Of a DNA stretch of 64,000 nucleotides, positions 19,009 through 37,792 are shown one piece after another (positions within the stretch are counted from its first letter, which is position 1; every line of letters begins with the position of its first letter). The notes beneath the pieces are model-generated. The model was not told the origin of the DNA and did no database searches. It worked only from the letters and a program-made list of their open reading frames with translations. Made by a program: the position numbers and the translations under genes. This DNA comes from Candidatus Thorarchaeota archaeon (GTDB taxonomy: Archaea > Asgardarchaeota > Thorarchaeia > Thorarchaeales > Thorarchaeaceae), in NCBI GenBank assembly GCA_048882485.1, contig JBHLRP010000003.1:104260-168259 (forward strand), read 5' to 3'.

Positions 19009-19740
19009 ATGTCTTCTAGAGAGCCTGACATTGCACGACGCGAATTCAAGCATGGGAAAGTTGCGTATGGCTTTCAATGGAATAAGACTCATCATGAACG
19101 CTTGGGAAAGCATGAGGGGGATCTTGCTTCCCTTTGGGCTCATATGACAAATATCACCTCTGGCAAGGTTCCGTCTGAACCATTCTCCGATCCATTCTAT
19201 GCGAGGGCTTCCTCCCTGAAGTTGCCAACGATGAATGCTACAAAGAAGGCAGCCATGAAGAACCGCTTGTTTAGAACAGGATCTGTAAAACGTTTCATGG
19301 ATAGTGACCTAATTAGCAAGCTAAGAGACTACCATCGTGCAAACAACAATCTAAGTTACAACGCGGACCATGGAATAGTGAGAGAGTTCCTATACAATGA
19401 TCCTAAAACTATTGCAATTGAAATCCCCGTGTGGTCTGAACGATATCGTCTGTCAGGGCATGTAGATCTCCTCAGATTCGTGGGAGACACTGTTGAGGTA
19501 TGCGATTACAAACCAGGGCCCATGCATTCTACTAGCAATCGATTCTTGGAATCAATACCACAAATCGCGGCCTATGGCGAGATGATGGCACATCACCTCG
19601 CGGGCACTCTGAGAAGCGCGCTTGATGCACCCCTACTCCCCAAAATTCGCTGCTGCGTCTTTGACACTCATGCATGCTGGGAGTTTGGTGCCGAGATGTT
19701 TGTGACTCTGATGGAATCTGGAAAGATATCTGGCTTCTAA
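19009..19740 (+). CDS. PD-(D/E)XK nuclease superfamily protein
   Basis: IAIEIPVW...GHVDLL...VCDYKP...QIAAYG, a RecB/Cas4-like motif set lacking Fe-S cysteines. Confidence 0.8.
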   Translation: MSSREPDIARREFKHGKVAYGFQWNKTHHERLGKHEGDLASLWAHMTNITSGKVPSEPFSDPFYARASSLKLPTMNATKKAAMKNRLFRTGSVKRFMDSDLISKLRDYHRANNNLSYNADHGIVREFLYNDPKTIAIEIPVWSERYRLSGHVDLLRFVGDTVEVCDYKPGPMHSTSNRFLESIPQIAAYGEMMAHHLAGTLRSALDAPLLPKIRCCVFDTHACWEFGAEMFVTLMESGKISGF

Positions 19741-20573
19741 TTCCGCCCGTTCTTGACAACTGTCATAGTCACATTTTCTTCAATACTGAGCAATCCTGTG
19801 TCTGCATTCCGAGTTTTTAATAGGATTGTAGGCCTCTGTGATACAAGTCCTTCTCGAATTCGTGAAAAGTAATTCTCGCTGAGCACTCCGAAACGACCGA
19901 GTGCAGGGTCAACCGGAACCCATCCTCGCTTCTCTAGGAAGATTTCGCACCACGCATGAGGTTCCGGCTTGGGTTGCCCCTTAAAGAAGTGACCAATGAC
20001 CCTTCTGGAGGGAATCTTGACCGCTCTTGTCAGCGCAATGAATAGGTCTGCATGTTCATCACAATCCCCCTCTTTTTCCAGCGCTGCTCTTGCCGCTCCT
20101 ATCCGCTCGTCTAGGTGAGTCTTTAGCTTCACTCGCTCTCGTACCACTTGAAAAGCCAGCCTTCCATATGAAAGATCTCCGTCGCTCTTTTCTGCGATAC
20201 CTTGAGACAACGTTTGAATGATTGGCTTGTCCAATTCCCAGTATCTTTGCATAGAACTATACATACCTATTGTCTGGTTCCTGATGGATTCTGGAATTGA
20301 TCGCTGCTCAATTAGCCAATCTCTAGCCGTAGTATCAATTCGCAGAATCACGGTAGGAGAGAAAGCTTCACCGGGACTGATCTCTGGAACCTTCATGACC
20401 GCAACAATATTCTTCTCTGCTCTCTCCATCACCCTGGCTGGAGGAAAGACATCAATCATCTCAACAAACTGATTGTCCATGTCAGTAAAGAGATGCCAAA
20501 TAAGCCGTCCATTACGAATCTTGGATTTTCCCCGATTCAATACATCGGCTTGCATCTCGATGCGTAATCTCAC
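19737..20573 (-). CDS. Transglutaminase-like cysteine protease domain protein
   Basis: Catalytic triad GDCDEHA / HAWCE / WVPVDP. Confidence 0.88.
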   Translation of the reverse strand: MRLRIEMQADVLNRGKSKIRNGRLIWHLFTDMDNQFVEMIDVFPPARVMERAEKNIVAVMKVPEISPGEAFSPTVILRIDTTARDWLIEQRSIPESIRNQTIGMYSSMQRYWELDKPIIQTLSQGIAEKSDGDLSYGRLAFQVVRERVKLKTHLDERIGAARAALEKEGDCDEHADLFIALTRAVKIPSRRVIGHFFKGQPKPEPHAWCEIFLEKRGWVPVDPALGRFGVLSENYFSRIREGLVSQRPTILLKTRNADTGLLSIEENVTMTVVKNGRN

Positions 20574-29631: not shown

Positions 29632-30555
29632 TCATAGAATTGGAATTATGAAGTAACCGACAAGGAGTGTGGATAGCAACGAAGCCGTTACTATGACCCA
29701 AATCCGTCTGCTCCACCGCCATATTGTGCTGCCATCAAATCCTGGAATGGGTATCATGTTGAAAAGACCAAGGAACGAATTAAGCAACATTCCGTAGAAG
29801 ATTATGAAATCAACCGGGTATGCCAATGCTCCTGTGGTGATTGCCAATATCTCTGCAATGATGAAAAGCAGTCCTGCGACAATTAGATTTGATAATGGAC
29901 CTGCAACTGTTGATTTGGCGTAGTCATCAACATCACTTACTCCTCCAACTGCCATTACCCCCGTGCCAAAAATGGGGATAGCAAAAAGGATTGCTACCGC
30001 GGACAGATAGTATCCCTGCATTGTCATGCGGAAATGTGCGTACATCCCATATCTCTGAGCTACAAACTTGTGTGCAAACTCATGAATCATGAATGACAAC
30101 CAAAAGATGGAGATCAGAGCCAATGGATACCACCATAACCCACCCAGGATGAGTCCAGGAAGTCTGATAATTCCATTGAGGATTCCAATTGGTGGCCCTC
30201 CAATGATAGAGATGCTAACCAGAATAGTAAGAACAGTGGCAATCCCAAGATCTCTTACCTCTGTATCTGTGAATCTTCGCTTTCTTGGTTTCCTCACTTT
30301 CACTGGTCGTGGCCGAGCAATTATGTCTTCATCGTAGTCTTCATCATCATACTGCCCTGTGAATGATTCTGTGATTTTCCTCCGAGCATCATCTTTGACC
30401 TTTTGCATTGCAGCGCATCCGTGTCCCTCTGGAAGTCTATGGTCAGCACAATAGATTCCTCTGCAATACGGACATGTAAAAGTCAGGTCTTCTTTGCCGC
30501 ATAAGGAGCAGTTGGCCATAGTTGTTGCCTCTTTGAGTTCTCGATTTCTGCCCAT
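29632..30555 (-). CDS. AN1-type zinc finger fused to an M50 (site-2) intramembrane metalloprotease
   Basis: CSLCGK...FTCPYCRGIYCADHRLPEGHGC (AN1); HEFAH, AGPLSN and FNMIPIPGFDG (M50). Confidence 0.88.
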   Translation of the reverse strand: MGRNRELKEATTMANCSLCGKEDLTFTCPYCRGIYCADHRLPEGHGCAAMQKVKDDARRKITESFTGQYDDEDYDEDIIARPRPVKVRKPRKRRFTDTEVRDLGIATVLTILVSISIIGGPPIGILNGIIRLPGLILGGLWWYPLALISIFWLSFMIHEFAHKFVAQRYGMYAHFRMTMQGYYLSAVAILFAIPIFGTGVMAVGGVSDVDDYAKSTVAGPLSNLIVAGLLFIIAEILAITTGALAYPVDFIIFYGMLLNSFLGLFNMIPIPGFDGSTIWRWSRRIWVIVTASLLSTLLVGYFIIPIL

Positions 30556-30792
30556 ATTGGCTTTCTTAAGAGTATTCTTAGTGGAAGCCTGCTGGCCTTT
30601 TTTGTGCGGGAAGAGCGGCTTTTTCTAAAGTTATTAAGAAATTCGTGCATATTAGTAAAGGTTCATATACTTTCTAATGTAATTTTCCAACAAACGCTTG
30701 AATTCTAGGCTTGTCAAGAGAGACTGCGGCCTGTATTTGAGATGGCCTCGCATGAAGCCTAGTGTCCTGGAAAGCGGGAGGAAACAAGTTTA

Positions 30793-31224
30793 ATGATTGA
30801 CGATGACGAATTTCAGAAGATTTTCCGTAGAATGATAGAGCAGTTCTTCGGCACCTTTGGGATGCAGCCCGGAGGAAGCGGGATAGACGGATTGTGGGAC
30901 AGTCCTTCGGAAGAATTGGATGAGGTGCAATTCGATATGCCTCATGAAGGTGCCAGAGTTGAAAGGATAGACCTTGGAGACACAGTCATCCTTGTTATGG
31001 ACAACTGTGCTATGGAAGAGGGTCTCCAAGTGACAGTCAAGGGGAGAGTCGCTACACTTTCCTACAGCCCTGATAACCTATTCCAGACATTTGAAACTCC
31101 CTTTGCCATTGATGCCAATCGTTCCTATGTTTCGTGCCGCAATGGGGTTGCTGAGATACGTCTGGAGAAGGATGAGAATAATAAAGAATCTGATGAAATA
31201 GAGAGATTGCTGAGATTTGAATAG
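30793..31224 (+). CDS. Hsp20/alpha-crystallin-like small heat-shock protein (divergent)
   Basis: SCRNGVAEIRLEK matches the sHSP C-terminal motif; lies directly upstream of cdc48. Confidence 0.7.
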   Translation: MIDDDEFQKIFRRMIEQFFGTFGMQPGGSGIDGLWDSPSEELDEVQFDMPHEGARVERIDLGDTVILVMDNCAMEEGLQVTVKGRVATLSYSPDNLFQTFETPFAIDANRSYVSCRNGVAEIRLEKDENNKESDEIERLLRFE

Positions 31225-31237
31225 AGGGTGTGTTTGA

Positions 31238-33466
31238 ATGGCAGAAAGTTCAGATAATTCGACTAGATTGAAGGTCGCGGCAGCAATGCCGAAGGATCAA
31301 GGTCGTGGGATAGTACGGTTGAACACTGAAGTACGTGACCTTCTCCAAGTCCGGGCAGGAGATTACGTTTTGCTTAAGGGGACCAAGGAGACCGTTGCAG
31401 TATGTTGGCCAAGCCTCAAGGAGGATGAAGTGCTTGATATGGTCCGAATGGATGGTTTCATTCGTGCAAATGCAGGAGTGAAGCTTGGGGAAATGGTAGA
31501 AGTTGGGACAACAAATGTTCCTGACGCAACTAGGGTTGTTCTAGCGCCAAGTCAGCCCGTAAGATTCCAGCCGGGCTTTGAGGACTACATAAAGCAACAA
31601 ATAATGAACCGGCCTATGACAAGAGGAGATATCATCCTAATAGCATCGATAGGACAAGGTCTTCAGTTCACCGCGACGTCTGTGGGTCCAAGCAAGCATG
31701 TTAGAGTTACTGCATCAACTAAGCTGGAGGTTCTCACTCGACCTGCAAAACCTGAGGAGATTTCAATCCCGCAGGTCACCTACGAAGACATAGGTGGTCT
31801 GAGCAAGGAGATACAGAAGATCCGAGAAATGGTTGAGCTCCCAATAAAATCCCCCGAGCTCTTCAGACGTCTCGGAATATCCCCACCAAAAGGTGTTTTG
31901 CTCCATGGGCCACCTGGAACAGGTAAGACGCTTATTGCGAAGGCAGTGGCTAATGAATCAGGTGCGAATTTCAAGACAATTAATGGACCAGAGATAATGT
32001 CCAAATTCTATGGAGAATCTGAACAGAAATTGAGAGAAGCCTTTGAGGAAGCTGAGAAGAACGCCCCTAGCATTATCTTCATTGACGAACTCGACAGTAT
32101 TGCACCAAAGAGGGCTGAAGTTACGGGAGAAGTTGAGAGAAGGGTCGTTGCCCAACTACTTGCGCTGATGGATGGACTAGCGGGCAGAGGACAAGTGATA
32201 GTAATTGGAGCAACAAACCGGGTAGATGATGTTGATGAGGCTCTCCGAAGACCGGGTCGGTTTGACCGCGAGATTGAGATTGGCGTGCCTGATCGACAGG
32301 GCCGTCTTGAGATACTTCAGATTCATACCAGATCCATGCCTCTCGAGGAAGATCTTAATCTTCAAAGGTTGGCTTCTGTCACTCATGGATTCGTTGGTGC
32401 GGACCTGGCGGCTCTAGCTAGAGAAGCCGCGATGGAAGCACTCCGCAGAGCGCTGCCTCATGTAGATCCTGAAACTGGAGATATTCCTCCAGATGTGCTT
32501 CGTGATCTCTTTGTGACACAGAATGATTTCGATATTGCACTCTCCGGTATCTCACCTTCTGCTCTGAGGGAGGTGCTTGTGGAAAAACCCAATGTACAAT
32601 GGGAAGATATTGGCGGACTGGAAAATGCGAAAAAGGCGCTATTGGAGTCCGTAGAAGGTCCTCTCAAGTATCCGGATGTTTTCACAGAAATGAAGATTAG
32701 GACCCCCAAAGGGATTCTTCTCTATGGCCCGCCAGGCACTGGAAAGACTCTACTCGCTAAGGCAGTCGCCACTACGAGTGAGGCTAACTTCATCTCAATA
32801 AAGGGACCTGAGATATTTAACAAATATGTGGGAGAATCAGAAAAAGCTGTGAGAGAGATATTCAAGAAAGCTAGACAGGTTGCTCCATGTGTAATCTTCT
32901 TTGATGAGATAGATGCGCTGCTCAGTCAGCGTGGGCGGCAAGATGAAACTGGAGTGACACAGAGGATTGTGAACCAGTTCCTAGCTGAGGTTGATGGGCT
33001 TCAGACTCTGCAGAATGTGCTTGTCATCGGCGCTACGAATCGCCCAGATATTATGGATCCAGCAATGCTTCGTCCTGGTCGATTCGATATCCTGTTGCAT
33101 GTCGAAGCACCTGACAAGGGTGCGAGATTGGAAATACTCAAGGTGCACACAGTTGCAAGGGGCATTCCGGGTTCGGAGAACCTCGATTTGGAGAAACTTG
33201 CAGAAAAGACAGCCAACTTCTCTGGAGCTGACATTGAAGGCCTAGTAAGAGTCGCAGTGATGATTGCTGTCACTGAGGGTTCAACACCAACAAATATCCA
33301 GATGAAGGCCAGGAAAATTGAAATGAAGCATTTCGAAGAAGCTCTGAAGACAGTGCGGCCAACTTTGACACCAAAAGTGTTGGAATACTATGACAAGATT
33401 TCTGCGGCTCTAGAAGGCCGCCAAATTGAGCCAGATAGACCGACGCGGTCTGACCTATATGTATAA
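31238..33466 (+). CDS. cdc48: Cdc48/VCP/p97 AAA+ ATPase
   Basis: N domain plus two AAA modules (GPPGTGKT twice; IIFIDE and VIFFDE; RPGRFD twice) and a C-terminal LYV HbYX motif. Confidence 0.96.
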
Positions 33467-33478
33467 TCCATCAAATCG

Positions 33479-33501
33479 GAGGGTCATCCACCCTGACTCT
33501 C
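33479..33501 (+). terminator. Short hairpin downstream of cdc48; possible terminator
   Basis: GAGGGTCA-N7-TGACTCTC followed by a pyrimidine-rich tract. Confidence 0.3.
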
Positions 33502-33569
33502 TCCCATTTCCTTAGGGTCGCAACACTTTTGGCATCCATATTACACAACACATTGTTGAGTGACTTACA

Positions 33570-36062
33570 ATGGGGCAACGTTGGATAGTAAATCTATGCC
33601 CATTTCTGCATTTTGACAACTCAAGAGTGCAGACGTATGAACATAACGTCAGCATTGTTTCTTGGAATGTCAAAAGCATTCTGGACTATCTTGAAGTGAA
33701 TCCAAGTCACAAATTCTGTGTGGACCAAGTGACACTTCTTGAGGGGTTCAAGCGACTATTTCCCAACTACTGGGACTCCCTTCATCAAAGGGTTTTGGAG
33801 GGGAGGATTGAGATTGTGGGTGGCATGTATGTGATGCCTGACCTCATCATCCCTGATGGAGAATCCATAGTTCGCCAATTTATGTTTGGCACTCGCTTCG
33901 TCAGAGAGGAACTAGGAGTTGAAGTGAAGACGGGGTGGGCAATAGATTCCTCGGGGCACTGCTCTCAAATGCCCCAAATTCTACGGCAATGTGGGATTGA
34001 TTCGTATGTGTTTTGGAGGGGGATGCCATATGATTCGCCGACTGAGTTTGTGTGGAAAGGACCTGATGGCAGTCGGGTGAATGCTGTGTGGCTTTCAAAT
34101 GGTTATGACAGCTCCGCATGGCTATCAGAGAATCTTAGAGAAGCTTACAGTAATCTACTCAAAGTTGCAGAATTGGCTGGAGCAAAGGCGTCCTCCCAGA
34201 ATGTGCTTGTGCCTGTTGGCGGCGAGCTTGTGCCTCCGCTACCACATTTAGCTGACATTGTTTCCCACTGGAATGAATCTTTTCCAGACATGCGAATGTC
34301 GATTGTAACTCCAAGGGAGTTCACTGAGAAAATCAAAGCAGTACAAGCCTCTCTACCCATGATGTCTGGAGAATTGGCATCTGGCCGTTTCTCATCTGCG
34401 AGATCTGGAGGTTTGAGTGCCAGAGTGAAGCTGAAGCAGATGAATCGCCAGCTAGAATCTATGCTTTATCTCACCGAGCTGCATCTATCATATACCGGTG
34501 ATTTGAGCAATACAAGGGTGTTGGAGAACCTCTGGCTAATACTTCTTTTCAATCAAGATCACAATATCATTAGAGGCACCATTGCCGATGAGCCCTATCA
34601 ATTCGCTGAGCGGAGATTCAAGCAAGCGCTAGACCAGGCTGGCGAGATTCTTGAAGATGCCATAAGTGGTGTTGCATCTCAAATCTCGGTTGATCCCTCC
34701 AAGGCATCATTTGTAATATTCAATCCTCTTCCTTGGCGCCGGAGTGATTTGACTCGACTTTCCATAGATCTATCTAAGATCCACACGCCCTTCTTTCGAA
34801 TTCATGATTCAAATGGAAACAGTGTTCCGTATCAGGTAGTTGGGGACATCGCCGAGGGAAGCCCCGCAGATGTCCTTATTCTTGCATCAGATATGCCAAG
34901 TCTTGGATATAGAGTCTACACTATTGAGCCCTCAGAGAAGCCTCTCGAATTTGAGTCTTCTTTACGCACAGGGAACAATTGGATAGAGTCGGATGATTTC
35001 ATCGTCGAATTTGATGATTTCAGTGGTGCGATGACAAGAGTGTTTGACAAACGCAATCAGTTTGAAGCTCTGCGCGGCCCCGGCAATTATCTAACAATGG
35101 AAAGTGATGTTGGAGACCTCTACAGATACGCAAGATCCACGCTTTCAGATGAGGAATCTGATCTCACAACATTGCGGCACTCAGGCAAACTTTCAGTCGT
35201 TGAGTCAGGTCCGCTTCGAGCCACAGTAATAGTTGAGGGAGATTTCAAGGATTCTAAGAGAGTCCAAAGGGTTGTCTTGTACGAGGATCTCCATAGAATC
35301 GACCTTGAAACAGAACTGAATTTCAATGGCCATGGCAAGCGTGTCAGAGTCAACTTCCCTCTTACAGTACTTGCAGACAATGTGGTAGTCGGCTCTCAAT
35401 TTGGTGCAGAGTCTAAGACCGCCACTCCGAATGATCCTCAGGAATGGGCTGATGCCAACCAGGGGCTCTTTTCTGGCCTTGATTGGGTGGATTGCTCTGG
35501 ACCAGAGTTTGGCATAGGGTTATCAGCATTTGGCCTTCATGAGTTTCACTTCCGAGATGGAATGCTCAGTGTAACTCTCCTGCGAAGTGTGGAACAGCTA
35601 TCACATGGGCGACATGATGATGTTCTTCAGTCAAAGACTGCAAATGAGAAAGGCGAACATTCATTTCGGATGTCTATTATTCCACACAAGGGAACCTGGA
35701 AACAGGCTTCAGTGTGGAAAACAGCTGCTGAGCACAGATTACCGCTAATTGGCTATCCGCTAGAAACTTCCGGCGGAACGCTGCCTCTTGAGAATTCATT
35801 TCTGAAAATTGAGGGAATGGAACTTGGTCTCTCCTGTTTCAAGATTGGTACTTCTGAACATGAGTTCATTATTCGACTCTATGAAATGGCGGGCGAAAAA
35901 GGAAGCGCAACTCTTGAATTTCCCTTTGGAGTATCCAGGGTCAGCCTGGTAGATCTCCGTGAGAATGTCATTGGAGACCTGCCAACATCTGGTTCAACTG
36001 CAACAATTCCAGTTGATGCTCACTCGATAATCACTCTCAGAGTTACCAAAGCATCTCGCTAG
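33570..36062 (+). CDS. GH38 alpha-mannosidase-like protein, no signal peptide
   Basis: HFD, GRIEIVGGMYVMPD..IPDGES..RQ, GWAIDSSGH (nucleophile Asp), EFVWKGPDGS, FNPLPWRR and IIRLYE motifs. Confidence 0.9.
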   Translation: MGQRWIVNLCPFLHFDNSRVQTYEHNVSIVSWNVKSILDYLEVNPSHKFCVDQVTLLEGFKRLFPNYWDSLHQRVLEGRIEIVGGMYVMPDLIIPDGESIVRQFMFGTRFVREELGVEVKTGWAIDSSGHCSQMPQILRQCGIDSYVFWRGMPYDSPTEFVWKGPDGSRVNAVWLSNGYDSSAWLSENLREAYSNLLKVAELAGAKASSQNVLVPVGGELVPPLPHLADIVSHWNESFPDMRMSIVTPREFTEKIKAVQASLPMMSGELASGRFSSARSGGLSARVKLKQMNRQLESMLYLTELHLSYTGDLSNTRVLENLWLILLFNQDHNIIRGTIADEPYQFAERRFKQALDQAGEILEDAISGVASQISVDPSKASFVIFNPLPWRRSDLTRLSIDLSKIHTPFFRIHDSNGNSVPYQVVGDIAEGSPADVLILASDMPSLGYRVYTIEPSEKPLEFESSLRTGNNWIESDDFIVEFDDFSGAMTRVFDKRNQFEALRGPGNYLTMESDVGDLYRYARSTLSDEESDLTTLRHSGKLSVVESGPLRATVIVEGDFKDSKRVQRVVLYEDLHRIDLETELNFNGHGKRVRVNFPLTVLADNVVVGSQFGAESKTATPNDPQEWADANQGLFSGLDWVDCSGPEFGIGLSAFGLHEFHFRDGMLSVTLLRSVEQLSHGRHDDVLQSKTANEKGEHSFRMSIIPHKGTWKQASVWKTAAEHRLPLIGYPLETSGGTLPLENSFLKIEGMELGLSCFKIGTSEHEFIIRLYEMAGEKGSATLEFPFGVSRVSLVDLRENVIGDLPTSGSTATIPVDAHSIITLRVTKASR

Positions 36063-36132: not shown

Positions 36133-36393
36133 CTACTCTTCTAGCAGCCTGTTGATTTCTTCTACTTTTCTCTCCAGCGCTGACAATCTCTCTCCCACGT
36201 TCTCCATCTTTGCCCTCATCTCCGCTCCCATTTCTCCCCCCGGATCTTGTTTCATTATGCTTCCAGTGAGGACAAGGGCCAAAATGATGAGAATGATGGA
36301 AAATCCAGCGTAATCCCTGAAATAGCCAAGGATACCACTGATGATCGCGGTTCCTATCCAGATGCCAACTATCGCTGTTCCTCTAGAATCCAT
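36133..36393 (-). CDS. Small two-TM membrane protein with a C-terminal coiled coil
   Basis: Two hydrophobic segments; overlaps the ArsR gene stop. Confidence 0.75.
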   Translation of the reverse strand: MDSRGTAIVGIWIGTAIISGILGYFRDYAGFSIILIILALVLTGSIMKQDPGGEMGAEMRAKMENVGERLSALERKVEEINRLLEE

Positions 36394-36691
36394 TCATATC
36401 TTTCCTCTTTTTCAATTCAATAGGCGATATTTCGATGTGGAAATCCTTCAGCCTGTAGTATCTGAGGGCTCTTGCCTCGTCTTCTAGAAGTACTATCCTT
36501 GTTTCGACTAGGCCTGCTTTGTAGAGTTTGTTCAGGTGTACCTTGGCGAGTGCTCTGCTTATGCCGACCTCCTTAGCTAACTCGCTGAGATATTTCTCGC
36601 CATCAACTAGGGAGGTGAGTATCTTGAGTCGATACTCATGTCCCAACGCTTTTAGCTTCTCTATGAGGTCTGCGTATTCCACATTCTTCAC
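36383..36691 (-). CDS. ArsR/SmtB-family transcriptional regulator
   Basis: KALGHEYRLKIL..L...YLSELAKEVGISRALAKVHLNKL..AGLV. Confidence 0.9.
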   Translation of the reverse strand: MKNVEYADLIEKLKALGHEYRLKILTSLVDGEKYLSELAKEVGISRALAKVHLNKLYKAGLVETRIVLLEDEARALRYYRLKDFHIEISPIELKKRKDMNGF

Positions 36692-36721: not shown

Positions 36722-36997
36722 ATAAGTATTTCTGACCTATCTACGAATCCTTTCTTCAAAGCAACAGCAGCCCTCCAAATTGGTCACCATCTTCAGAATC
36801 TAAATCTTGATAAAAAATGGAGCAGAGGAATCGCTTCGGATTTTGAAAATCTCGATACAATCAAGATAGCCTTTTGAAGCCATGAAAACAGGGTCATAGG
36901 ACAAAGACATTAGTGAGGTCTGACATTGAGCGATTTCTATCCTATCTCGCCATTGGTTGGCATCACCAATACAAGCTATGCGGCACAAGCAGGAGTC

Positions 36998-37792
36998 ATG
37001 GATGAGAAGTGGGCATGCCGTGTGGTCAGAGGCAAGAAGATTCTAGTCGAGAAGACTATTCATGACTTAGATTTGGAATCCTATGTGGGAGTAATCTATG
37101 GCCACATAAGACTTGAAGGCCTCAGCAGACATGCGGTGGCTCAATGCGCCGGCCGACTAATGCAGTTTTCGAGGAAATATCAGACTGCAGGTGTGTGTCC
37201 CAACTATGAGATTCCTGACCTTGTATATGATAATGGCAGTTCCCCCACAGCTCCTTCTGAGGGGGAATCTGAGATTAAAGCCGAGCCTTCTACAAGTATT
37301 GATGATATCTCTCTCACTGGCGTAGGTGCCATACCCAAGCTGGAGTCCCTGAACAGTACCGATCTCTGGAAACACGCAATCCAATCTTACGGCGTGATGT
37401 TGTCAGAATTGGCAACATATGGCGGAAATCTTCCCTCGGGCCATCTTGAGGTCATGTTTGAGAATGTAGCAAACGAATTGGTTAGAATGTGGAGCGCAAC
37501 TGGTGATGGAATTGACGTTCTTTCTGGTTTTGGAAATATGATCCTCAGTTGCTCGAAAGAAGCTCAGCTCCCTGCAGCTCCAGTACACCAAATGAAGATA
37601 GAAACAGGACGTTGCGAACTTTTGGCAATGGCAAGACAGATTGATCCTGATGGGAGGAAACTTCCGGCGGGCTATCCATGCGCATTCCATGAAAAGGTTG
37701 CAGAGAAAGTTGGCAAACTTATCGGAGCCAAAATAGAAATCAATACCTCTTCAACGGGATGCATTGTTCAAATCGCTCTAGACCTCGGCTAG
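36998..37792 (+). CDS. Hypothetical protein with a C-terminal V4R/MetOD-like Cys motif
   Basis: AGGAG precedes the ATG at 36998; GRCELL...YPCAFH...GCIV Cys pattern. Confidence 0.6.
   Translation: MDEKWACRVVRGKKILVEKTIHDLDLESYVGVIYGHIRLEGLSRHAVAQCAGRLMQFSRKYQTAGVCPNYEIPDLVYDNGSSPTAPSEGESEIKAEPSTSIDDISLTGVGAIPKLESLNSTDLWKHAIQSYGVMLSELATYGGNLPSGHLEVMFENVANELVRMWSATGDGIDVLSGFGNMILSCSKEAQLPAAPVHQMKIETGRCELLAMARQIDPDGRKLPAGYPCAFHEKVAEKVGKLIGAKIEINTSSTGCIVQIALDLG

Follow-up and report, generated by a model that had tools for sequence, protein, structure and literature searches.

In eukaryotes, Cdc48/p97 needs adaptors to reach membrane substrates, and, to our knowledge, neither an adaptor of Cdc48 nor a factor that recruits it to membranes has been defined in archaea. 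The HSR1 operon of Archaeoglobus fulgidus is said to be a heat-shock unit that joins hsp20 to a cdc48-type gene. In Pyrococcus furiosus, the genes of HSP20 and of the Cdc48 homologue VAT1 are adjacent, Phr-regulated heat-shock genes with separate start sites (PMC10746257), and archaeal Cdc48-20S proteasome complexes are established (PMC13328587, citing Barthelme & Sauer 2012/2014). Archaeal site-2 proteases are functionally uncharacterised, and an intramembrane protease has been tied to glycoprotein biology in Haloferax volcanii, where deletion of RhoII alters S-layer N-glycosylation (PMC9263693). Here we describe a locus of a Candidatus Thorarchaeota archaeon in which the gene of an M50 site-2 protease with an N-terminal AN1 zinc finger (AN1-M50) lies divergently beside an hsp20-like-cdc48 pair. 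The locus was studied within a stretch of 64,000 nucleotides (nt), the window (contig JBHLRP010000003.1, G000:C3:104260-168259), of a Thorarchaeia metagenome-assembled genome of 3.96 Mb and 90.5% completeness (GCA_048882485.1). The association between the protease and Cdc48 genes extends across Thorarchaeia and recurs in other orientations in two further Asgard families, which favours a functional tie, and an alpha-mannosidase gene that follows cdc48 most likely forms a separate transcription unit.

The AN1-M50 gene occupies 29632..30555 on the reverse strand (307 aa) and is separated by a common intergenic region of 237 nt (30556..30792) from the gene of a divergent small heat-shock protein (sHSP), here called hsp20-like (30793..31224, forward strand, 143 aa). 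The gene of a Cdc48/VAT-type double-AAA+ unfoldase, paralogue A (Cdc48-A; 31238..33466, forward strand, 742 aa), starts 14 nt past the sHSP stop, so that co-transcription of both genes is likely. These three genes, and the GH38 mannosidase gene after cdc48, had been reported in an initial annotation made from the sequence alone, and an open reading frame check recovered all four at exactly the same coordinates. The layout is best explained if the locus comprises three or four transcription units rather than a single operon.

The AN1-M50 protein matched the Pfam families zf-AN1 (PF01428; E=7e-10, 39.3 bits against a cut-off of 27.9) and Peptidase_M50 (E=3e-7, 30.3 bits against 27.2). In the genome-wide profile search the zf-AN1 score rose to 42.9 bits, and this was the single AN1 domain of the genome. 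The finger spans residues 16-51, and its ligands (C16, C19, C28, C31, C36, H39, H45 and C47) satisfy the AN1 pattern C-x2-C-x8-12-C-x2-C-x4-C-x2-H-x5-H-x-C. All eight are invariant or at least 90% conserved across 14 Asgard sequences, and the HExxH and N..P..DG motifs of the protease, present as HEFAH at residues 158-162 and FNMIPIPGFDG at 264-274, are likewise conserved across Asgard lineages. Both motifs are in register with those of the solved site-2 protease MJ0392 (MjS2P, PDB 3b4r), with which AN1-M50 shares the placement of HExxH and NxxPxxxxDG in transmembrane segments and a minimal multi-pass core. Hydropathy analysis gave about six hydrophobic segments, C-terminal to a charged linker that is acidic and then K/R-rich. 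The finger is predicted to lie on the cytoplasmic side together with the K/R-rich linker, and the enzyme is predicted to cleave transmembrane substrates within the membrane. Unlike other site-2 proteases, it has an N-terminal cytoplasmic AN1 finger in the place of PDZ or CBS regulatory domains, and it has no known signalling substrate. Because the orthologues begin at M13 (30519), this is probably the true start, which would give a protein of 295 aa and a divergent spacer of 273 nt. Such proteins are annotated at NCBI as 'AN1-type zinc finger domain-containing protein', and no description of the AN1-M50 fusion, or of a link between AN1-M50 and Cdc48, was found in a full-text literature search.

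The closest solved relatives of the finger are those of ZFAND1 (1wys, E=5e-6; 7yab) and of yeast Cuz1 (5ij4, E=3e-3), which have the same eight zinc ligands and also act in a stress context. However, the link to Cdc48 is physical in those proteins and one of gene neighbourhood here. ZFAND1 and Cuz1 are soluble and carry a ubiquitin-like domain (UBL), which we take to be their Cdc48 binder, whereas in AN1-M50 the finger is part of an intramembrane protease that has no UBL, in a genome where no ubiquitin system was detected by searches that were also silent in the controls. With RhoII of H. volcanii it has in common that both are archaeal intramembrane proteases, although RhoII is a serine rhomboid and not a zinc M50 enzyme. 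RhoII is reported to carry an N-terminal AN1 finger as well; the PF01428 control search matched in H. volcanii, which is consistent with this and does not confirm it.

AN1-M50 is encoded in single copy in 79 of the 87 genomes that represent Thorarchaeia species, and 23 of the 24 high-quality ones have it. When the coordinates of both genes were compared by hand, AN1-M50 and Cdc48-A were found at most 9.4 kb apart in all the genomes that have them on one contig (52/52). The gap measures 0.66-0.96 kb in 24 genomes, with only the sHSP gene between them, and 2.1-2.8 kb in another 24, where a FAD-dependent oxidoreductase of about 470 aa is additionally found; in the other 4 genomes it reaches 3.4-9.4 kb. 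Both genes are divergent in all 52 except G005, in which the protease gene is inverted. Two seeming exceptions to the linkage proved to be artefacts: G059 (L108) was assembled by concatenation, with a join that truncates the hsp20-like gene past codon 36, and G061 (L110) bears a TnpB-like transposase insertion.

AN1-M50 fusions are spread over the whole Asgard phylum: matches were obtained in 313 of 400 genomes, and the fusion was encoded in each of the 20 loci examined outside Thorarchaeia. Within these 20 loci, Cdc48 is directly beside AN1-M50 only in families f6 and f5, the two genes being convergent and about 50 nt apart in f6 (L072, L073) and co-directional and about 140 nt apart in f5 (L074). 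The NCBI protein labels of both families are Baldrarchaeia, with one Odinarchaeota label in f6; since the f6 labels are mostly Baldrarchaeia, the Cdc48 linkage was counted in two named classes and not in three. A maximum-likelihood tree of 27 Cdc48 sequences, whose deeper branching was without resolution, placed all protease-linked copies (Thorarchaeia A, f6 and f5) outside the clade of the second Thorarchaeia paralogue, B (support 100/99). The strongest argument for a functional tie between the protease and Cdc48 is that in a second class the genes have been rearranged and are still neighbours. The association is thus more than a local accident, being Thorarchaeia-wide and recurring in two Baldrarchaeia-labelled families.

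Several other genes and variants were seen at these loci. The FAD-dependent oxidoreductase (Pyr_redox_2 + FAD-depend_C) lies between AN1-M50 and hsp20-like, in the orientation of the latter, in roughly half the genomes of Thorarchaeia (g5, g6, g9, g11-g15; for example L093:5434-6879(+), L092:10393-11781(-), L097:8987-10441(-) and L098:8582-10033(-)), and is not at this place in the window. In G061 the hsp20-cdc48 pair is on a different contig from AN1-M50, and a TnpB/OrfB-like gene (L110:94-1284(-), G061:C38), whose product has a zinc ribbon at its C-terminus, stands at the contig start, directly 5' of AN1-M50. In f6 and f5, the gene directly 5' of AN1-M50 on the same strand encodes a CE4 polysaccharide deacetylase (PF01522), in which a signal peptide is not obvious (L072:8721-9518(+), L073:9808-10590(-) and L074:6059-6805(+)). 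The Loki-type family f22 has tandem AN1-M50 genes (L087:8453-9382(-) and L087:9534-10514(-); the same in L088); HExxH has been lost from one copy, a possible pseudoprotease. In family f30 (L085:9803-10780(+)) the AN1 finger is on the C-terminal side of the M50 core.

Cdc48-A matched TIGR01243 (CDC48) with 1034 bits against a cut-off of 802.65 and contains the Pfam domains CDC48_N, CDC48_2, two AAA and two AAA_lid_3, corresponding to the double-psi-barrel N domain, D1 and D2. Thorarchaeia genomes have two Cdc48 paralogues, A (68-100% identical) and B (55-58%). The protein ends in ...RSDLYV, and L-Y-V satisfies the hydrophobic-Tyr-X (HbYX) motif that the initial annotation had assigned to it. 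The strict form is, however, present only in genus g1, the other genera having G/S/A/Q-Tyr/Phe-X, and since paralogue B of the window genome ends in G-Y-I, a Tyr-X tail is not unique to A. A penultimate Tyr or Phe was found in 20 of 20 Thorarchaeia A-type tails examined, and the B-type tails vary (PGYI, SYYS, PGTI, SMYG, GYTI). The window genome has 20S proteasome subunit genes, and docking of the Cdc48-A tail on the 20S particle may be proposed by analogy. In its double-ring Cdc48, its Tyr-X tail and its 20S genes the genome resembles the established archaeal Cdc48-20S systems; Thorarchaeia differ from them in that the canonical hydrophobic-Tyr-X is confined to the genus of the window.

No Pfam HSP20 match was obtained for the hsp20-like protein even at E<=10, and the NCBIfam archaeal Hsp20 profile gave 17.6 bits (E=0.002) against a cut-off of 140. 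An AlphaFold2 (AF2) model based on 17 orthologues displayed a confident beta-sandwich, the alpha-crystallin domain (ACD), at residues ~55-127 (predicted local distance difference test, pLDDT, 80-93). Its best Foldseek match was the ACD of Sulfolobus Hsp20.1 (4rzk; E=8e-5, template modelling score 0.71, root-mean-square deviation 2.1 A), followed by many sHSP and then by CS domains, and the language-model neighbours of the protein were Hsp20, CS and GvpH. The architecture consists of an N-terminal helix, a disordered linker, the ACD and a loose L/I-x-I/L/F tail; compared with the I-x-I/V motif, tails such as LRF, LRI and LML are present in many orthologues and are not uniform. On this model, the Hsp20 name given in the initial annotation is correct at the level of the fold, and only there. 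The gene is immediately 5' of Cdc48-A in 18 of 20 Thorarchaeia loci examined.

The region 30556-30792 is AT-rich and contains at ~30655-30690 a TATA-like element, TTCATATAC, flanked by the inverted repeat TTAGTAAAG / CTTTCTAA, together with a small leader hairpin ahead of the hsp20-like start. The block formed by TATA element and inverted repeat is kept within genus g1 and was called by eye as a putative promoter. Thorarchaeia genera other than g1 have a conserved promoter and a structured leader 5' of hsp20-like-cdc48, which were aligned (alignment A4) from L103:5068-5162(+), L095:5282-5376(+), L098:8343-8437(-) and 12 further loci; the window does not have this form. The promoter comprises a TATA box, GCTTATATA, followed by two operator-like repeats, TGGTCCCTAG x2, with variants in the form of ACCAAGTGGTAT x2 in g12 or of one palindrome, GGGAC-N5-GTCCC. 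The leader, of ~55 nt, has an outer helix (GAAGCCC/GGGCTTC), followed by (G)TGACTC, which is invariant and unpaired, and by an inner hairpin (GGGCGGC/GCCGCCC), and its 3' end is 10-15 nt ahead of a GGAGG ribosome-binding site. It contains 13 pairs, with 95.9% of cells paired, and 6 pairs show double (compensatory) changes against a shuffle mean of 1.5, a number reached in 0 of 500 shuffles. An Rfam search of the leader gave no family at gathering score. It is not an RNA thermometer of the classical kind, as the stems are GC-rich and leave the Shine-Dalgarno sequence free.

The hsp20-cdc48 pair is, like the P. furiosus unit (PMC10746257), an ordinary archaeal heat-shock unit of an already known kind: the sHSP gene is directly 5' of Cdc48/VAT on the same strand, and in the Thorarchaeia relatives operator-like repeats stand by the TATA box. 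It is unlike that unit in the divergence of its sHSP, too great for Pfam, in that no Phr- or HSR1-type regulator was identified, in the structured 5' leader of the genera other than g1 and in the divergent membrane protease gene attached to it.

A conserved fifth gene that the initial annotation had not reported, orf288 (36926..37792, forward strand, TTG start), follows GH38, or Cdc48 where GH38 is missing, in all the Thorarchaeia loci with enough contig. Its product has a strongly conserved N-domain of ~95 aa (orf288-N), an acidic disordered linker and a Cys/His-rich C-domain in which C209, C230, C252, H255 and C279 are invariant (alignment A1). The family comprises 226 members, all named 'hypothetical protein' and without Pfam assignment, and those named by lineage are all Asgard. 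For orf288 itself there was no Pfam match at E<=10 and no Foldseek match against PDB at E<=1e-3 (best E>=2.5e-3), and the scores in the ESM Atlas (<=0.83) were uninformative. In the AF2 model (pLDDT 84), the C-domain compared with Bet3, TPC6B, the Thorarchaeota TRAPPC3 7yh2 and the V4R sensor domains of PoxR and DmpR at Z 4.8-5.6 (V4R/Bet3/TRAPPC3, 5.1-5.6), level with the values of histidine-kinase CA domains, so that a V4R/Bet3-like fold can be proposed tentatively. By profile search, orf288-N homologues were found divergent from AN1-M50 in Freyarchaeia (3/3 informative genomes of one genus), also with a similar Cys-rich C-domain, and likewise in family f17, where two of three genera have them in fusion with a double zinc ribbon. 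No Cdc48 is near AN1-M50 and orf288-N in the Freyarchaeia and f17 loci, and orf288-N is a second, independent neighbour relationship of AN1-M50. One f17-type contig, L079 (G210:C119), which is Asgard in the collection, bears the bacterial NCBI label 'Candidatus Deferrimicrobium sp.' and its bin is probably mislabelled.

Between GH38 and orf288 the window has a pair of genes on the reverse strand, which encode a membrane protein of 86 aa that has a coiled-coil tail (36133-36393) and an ArsR-family winged helix-turn-helix protein (36383-36691), with an overlap of 11 nt. The close relative L002, with flanking proteins 97-98% identical, does not have the pair and leaves only ~80 nt between GH38 and orf288; the pair is thus a recent two-gene insertion in this genome only.

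The gene of the cytosolic GH38 alpha-mannosidase-family protein (33570..36062, forward strand, 830 aa) is in the same orientation as cdc48 and 103 nt from it. The protein has the Pfam domains PF01074 (5.6e-42), PF09261, PF07748 and PF17677, and its catalytic domain begins at residue 7, too early for a signal peptide to precede it; that it has none had been noted before. Its nearest PDB structures are yeast Ams1 (6lz1, 1e-32) and SpGH38 of Streptococcus (2wyh, 7e-30), and its sole NCBIfam match is the E. coli enzyme MngB (NF007331), with 237 bits against a cut-off of 1138. With these cytosolic GH38s it shares the four-domain architecture, the absence of a signal peptide and, by eye, the His/Asp metal motif and the Asp nucleophile motif; it does not have the ~280-residue N-terminal extension of Ams1. 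The subfamily motifs are CPFLHFDN, WAIDSSG and QDHNIIRG. By eye, the metal ligands and the nucleophile seem conserved, H14/D16 (LHFD), D126 (WAIDSSG) and H331 (QDHN) presumably corresponding to the ligand and nucleophile positions of Drosophila GMII. The motifs LHFD and QDHN are nevertheless atypical for the group: at the substrate site QDHN stands for QxHD, with Asn in the place of Asp past H331, and the metal-ligand Asp D16 is replaced by E or N in two orthologues.

Orthologues of this enzyme (47-100% identical) were found in 41 of the 85 genomes of a single Thorarchaeia family and in no other lineage among the 400 Asgard genomes, the next-best homologues being 27-32% identical. The gene adjoins Cdc48-A wherever both are on one contig (~40 genomes). 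It is missing in genera g3, g5 and g16 (0/7) and in most of g12, where orf288 directly follows cdc48, and was not present in the AN1-M50 loci of Baldrarchaeia or Freyarchaeia. As the subfamily belongs to one family and is missing in several of its genera, this distribution suggests a single insertion, after which at least four genera lost the gene. Regarding the spacer before the gene, the stem-loop 33478..33502 (forward strand) lies 12 nt past the cdc48 stop and has 9 bp, 2 of them G-U. Its energy in the window is not better than that of shuffles (z=-1.2), and it is kept with compensatory changes in genus g1. The other genera have a hairpin, a T-run and then a TATA-like CCTATAAGG ~40 nt 5' of the GH38 start. 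A sigma-70/terminator scan gave nothing above shuffles, its model being ill-suited to archaea. Since a hairpin/T-run and a TATA-like box precede the gene, GH38 is most likely a separate transcription unit with its own TATA box, which agrees with the earlier suspicion that the hairpin may uncouple the mannosidase.

A mannosylglycerate role for GH38 was set aside, since mannosylglycerate (MPG) synthase (PF09488) was found in 0 of 87 Thorarchaeia genomes, a Thermus positive control being matched. It is possible that the enzyme acts on mannosides taken up from outside. A second GH38 of the genome (L113:1208-4132(+), G000:C105; 974 aa) has the canonical HWDRAW and is 30% identical to that of the locus. 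Directly 5' of it, L113:9-1136(+) has an N-terminus that appears GHMP/galactokinase-like by eye only, and if this kinase reading holds, the second GH38 would be in a sugar-catabolic setting, unlike that of the locus.

Since the initial annotation had proposed a module related to endoplasmic-reticulum-associated degradation (ERAD), components of this pathway were also searched for. Pfam ubiquitin, Ufd1 and Npl4 (PF00240, PF03152, PF05021) gave no match in the 90.5%-complete genome, which is a weak negative as the control genomes were silent too. GH38 enzymes trim mannose that is free or in terminal position and are unable to release glycans from proteins. No PNGase-like protein was found among the matches of the transglutaminase core, of which the genome has three, and GH85 was not searched for. 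One of them, a 278-aa transglutaminase-like cysteine protease (PF01841) encoded in the window at 19737-20573 (reverse strand), was rejected as a PNGase because it matches only generic transglutaminase-like enzymes (3isr, E=9e-4), the protein-glutamine gamma-glutamyltransferase 6g49 being at E=0.82.

We give even chances to a reading in which sHSP-Cdc48 is a heat-shock unit that feeds the 20S proteasome, with AN1-M50 as its membrane-side partner, orf288 as a further partner and GH38 as a passenger. The sHSP would hold unfolding proteins, and Cdc48-A would thread substrates and pass them to 20S through its C-terminal Tyr-X tail, a mechanism that is established in other archaea. AN1-M50 would clip damaged or orphan membrane proteins inside the bilayer, and its finger, on a flexible charged tether of ~50 residues, could recruit Cdc48 or 20S as ZFAND1 and Cuz1 do, so that membrane fragments would be extracted and degraded without ubiquitin. 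The Asgard-only orf288, a two-domain metal-binding protein, may be an adaptor, sensor or substrate of the protease. GH38 would have been inserted between cdc48 and orf288 in the Thorarchaeia ancestor and would act as an independent enzyme on cytosolic alpha-mannosides, from its own promoter. Cooperation of AN1-M50 with Cdc48 is proposed because their adjacency is both conserved and rearranged and because of the homology of the AN1 domain. What the data show are the identities of the genes, the topology motifs, the patterns of conservation and rearrangement and the separate promoter elements; every physical contact and the direction of substrate flow are what we infer from them.

Several observations weigh against this reading. 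In 15 of the 20 loci outside Thorarchaeia (Heimdall, Loki-type and others) neither a Cdc48 nor an orf288 homologue is found within ~9 kb of AN1-M50, and three Freyarchaeia and f17 loci do not have Cdc48 although they have orf288-N. In the finger homologues Cuz1 and ZFAND1, it is presumably the proteasome that AN1 contacts and a separate UBL that contacts Cdc48, and the fusion has no UBL. Moreover, site-2 proteases are classically signalling and not quality-control enzymes (PMC9263693). Finally, the whole region is collinear across the single GTDB family of Thorarchaeia sampled, and the positions of cc210 and orf333, two unrelated genes, are conserved there too. Because of this, conservation within Thorarchaeia carries little weight, and independent support comes only from the two further families, both Baldrarchaeia-labelled; the rearranged adjacency represents only two or three independent events. 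The same collinearity, which includes downstream genes, would be expected if AN1-M50, hsp20-cdc48, GH38 and orf288 were unrelated genes held in an inherited order by low rearrangement in the lineage. That every unit seems to carry its own promoter, and that most other Asgard families are without Cdc48 near AN1-M50, would fit such an explanation too. Nevertheless, we hold inherited order to be somewhat unlikely, as in Thorarchaeia the adjacency outlasts one inversion as well as insertions of 1.4-9 kb, the pairing recurs in two other orientations in the Baldrarchaeia-labelled families, and orf288-N is paired with AN1-M50 in Freyarchaeia and f17, where the neighbourhood is otherwise different.

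Two further explanations assign the protease a different task. As a signalling enzyme it would cleave, like bacterial RseP or SpoIVFB, a membrane-tethered factor that controls the heat-shock operon, with the AN1 finger or orf288 as a sensor or regulatory module. The classical role of site-2 proteases, the divergent arrangement around a common 237-nt spacer, which is that of a regulator and its target, and the possible V4R-like sensor fold of orf288 would agree with this, and the operator-like repeats and structured leader of the relatives indicate that the operon is clearly regulated. However, the cluster has no conserved gene for a membrane-tethered transcription factor or an anti-sigma-like protein, the ArsR and small membrane protein pair (36133-36691) is present only in this genome, the convergent or co-directional order in Baldrarchaeia is unlike that of a regulator-target promoter pair, and the AN1 homology points to Cdc48 and proteasome partners; we therefore see little probability in it. 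The initial annotation had instead joined the four genes in an ERAD-like module for damaged membrane glycoproteins, with M50 for cutting, Cdc48 for extraction and GH38 for trimming of the glycans. In its favour, GH38 has no signal peptide and is closest by sequence, among solved structures, to cytosolic Ams1, its orthologue always directly follows cdc48 in ~40 genomes, mannosylglycerate synthase is missing from the Thorarchaeia genomes, and another carbohydrate-active enzyme, the CE4 deacetylase, precedes AN1-M50 in Baldrarchaeia. But Ams1 is only slightly closer than the cytosolic GH38s of bacteria and MngB is the sole NCBIfam match, the QDHN motif and the replaced metal-ligand Asp are atypical, and GH38 is limited to one family, has been lost in at least four genera, is not found at the Freyarchaeia or Baldrarchaeia loci and carries a TATA box of its own past a terminator-like hairpin/T-run. 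In addition, the searches for a PNGase-like enzyme, Ufd1, Npl4 and ubiquitin found none, the controls being silent for the last three. With a lineage-specific, separately transcribed GH38 the four-gene module is hardly probable, and its deglycosylation step finds no support. The basis of a 'proto-ERAD with deglycosylation' is a single gene insertion specific to one lineage, and this reading should not be carried further. All in all, the observation of an AN1-M50 protease that shares an intergenic region with hsp20-cdc48 is confirmed, and the interpretation first given to it is partly supported.

Returning to the reading of AN1-M50 as membrane-side partner of the sHSP-Cdc48 unit, a bolder form of it may be put forward, in which AN1-M50, Cdc48-A/sHSP and orf288 make up a ubiquitin-independent clip-extract-degrade pathway, the AN1 finger is the ancestral docking module that eukaryotes later inherited in their ZFAND1/Cuz1-Cdc48-proteasome axis, and GH38 stands outside. 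We hold this form to be unlikely. If it were true, the pathway would be an archaeal forerunner of membrane-associated degradation. AN1-M50 is a concrete, testable candidate for an archaeal Cdc48 membrane recruitment factor, and orf288 would be a second one.

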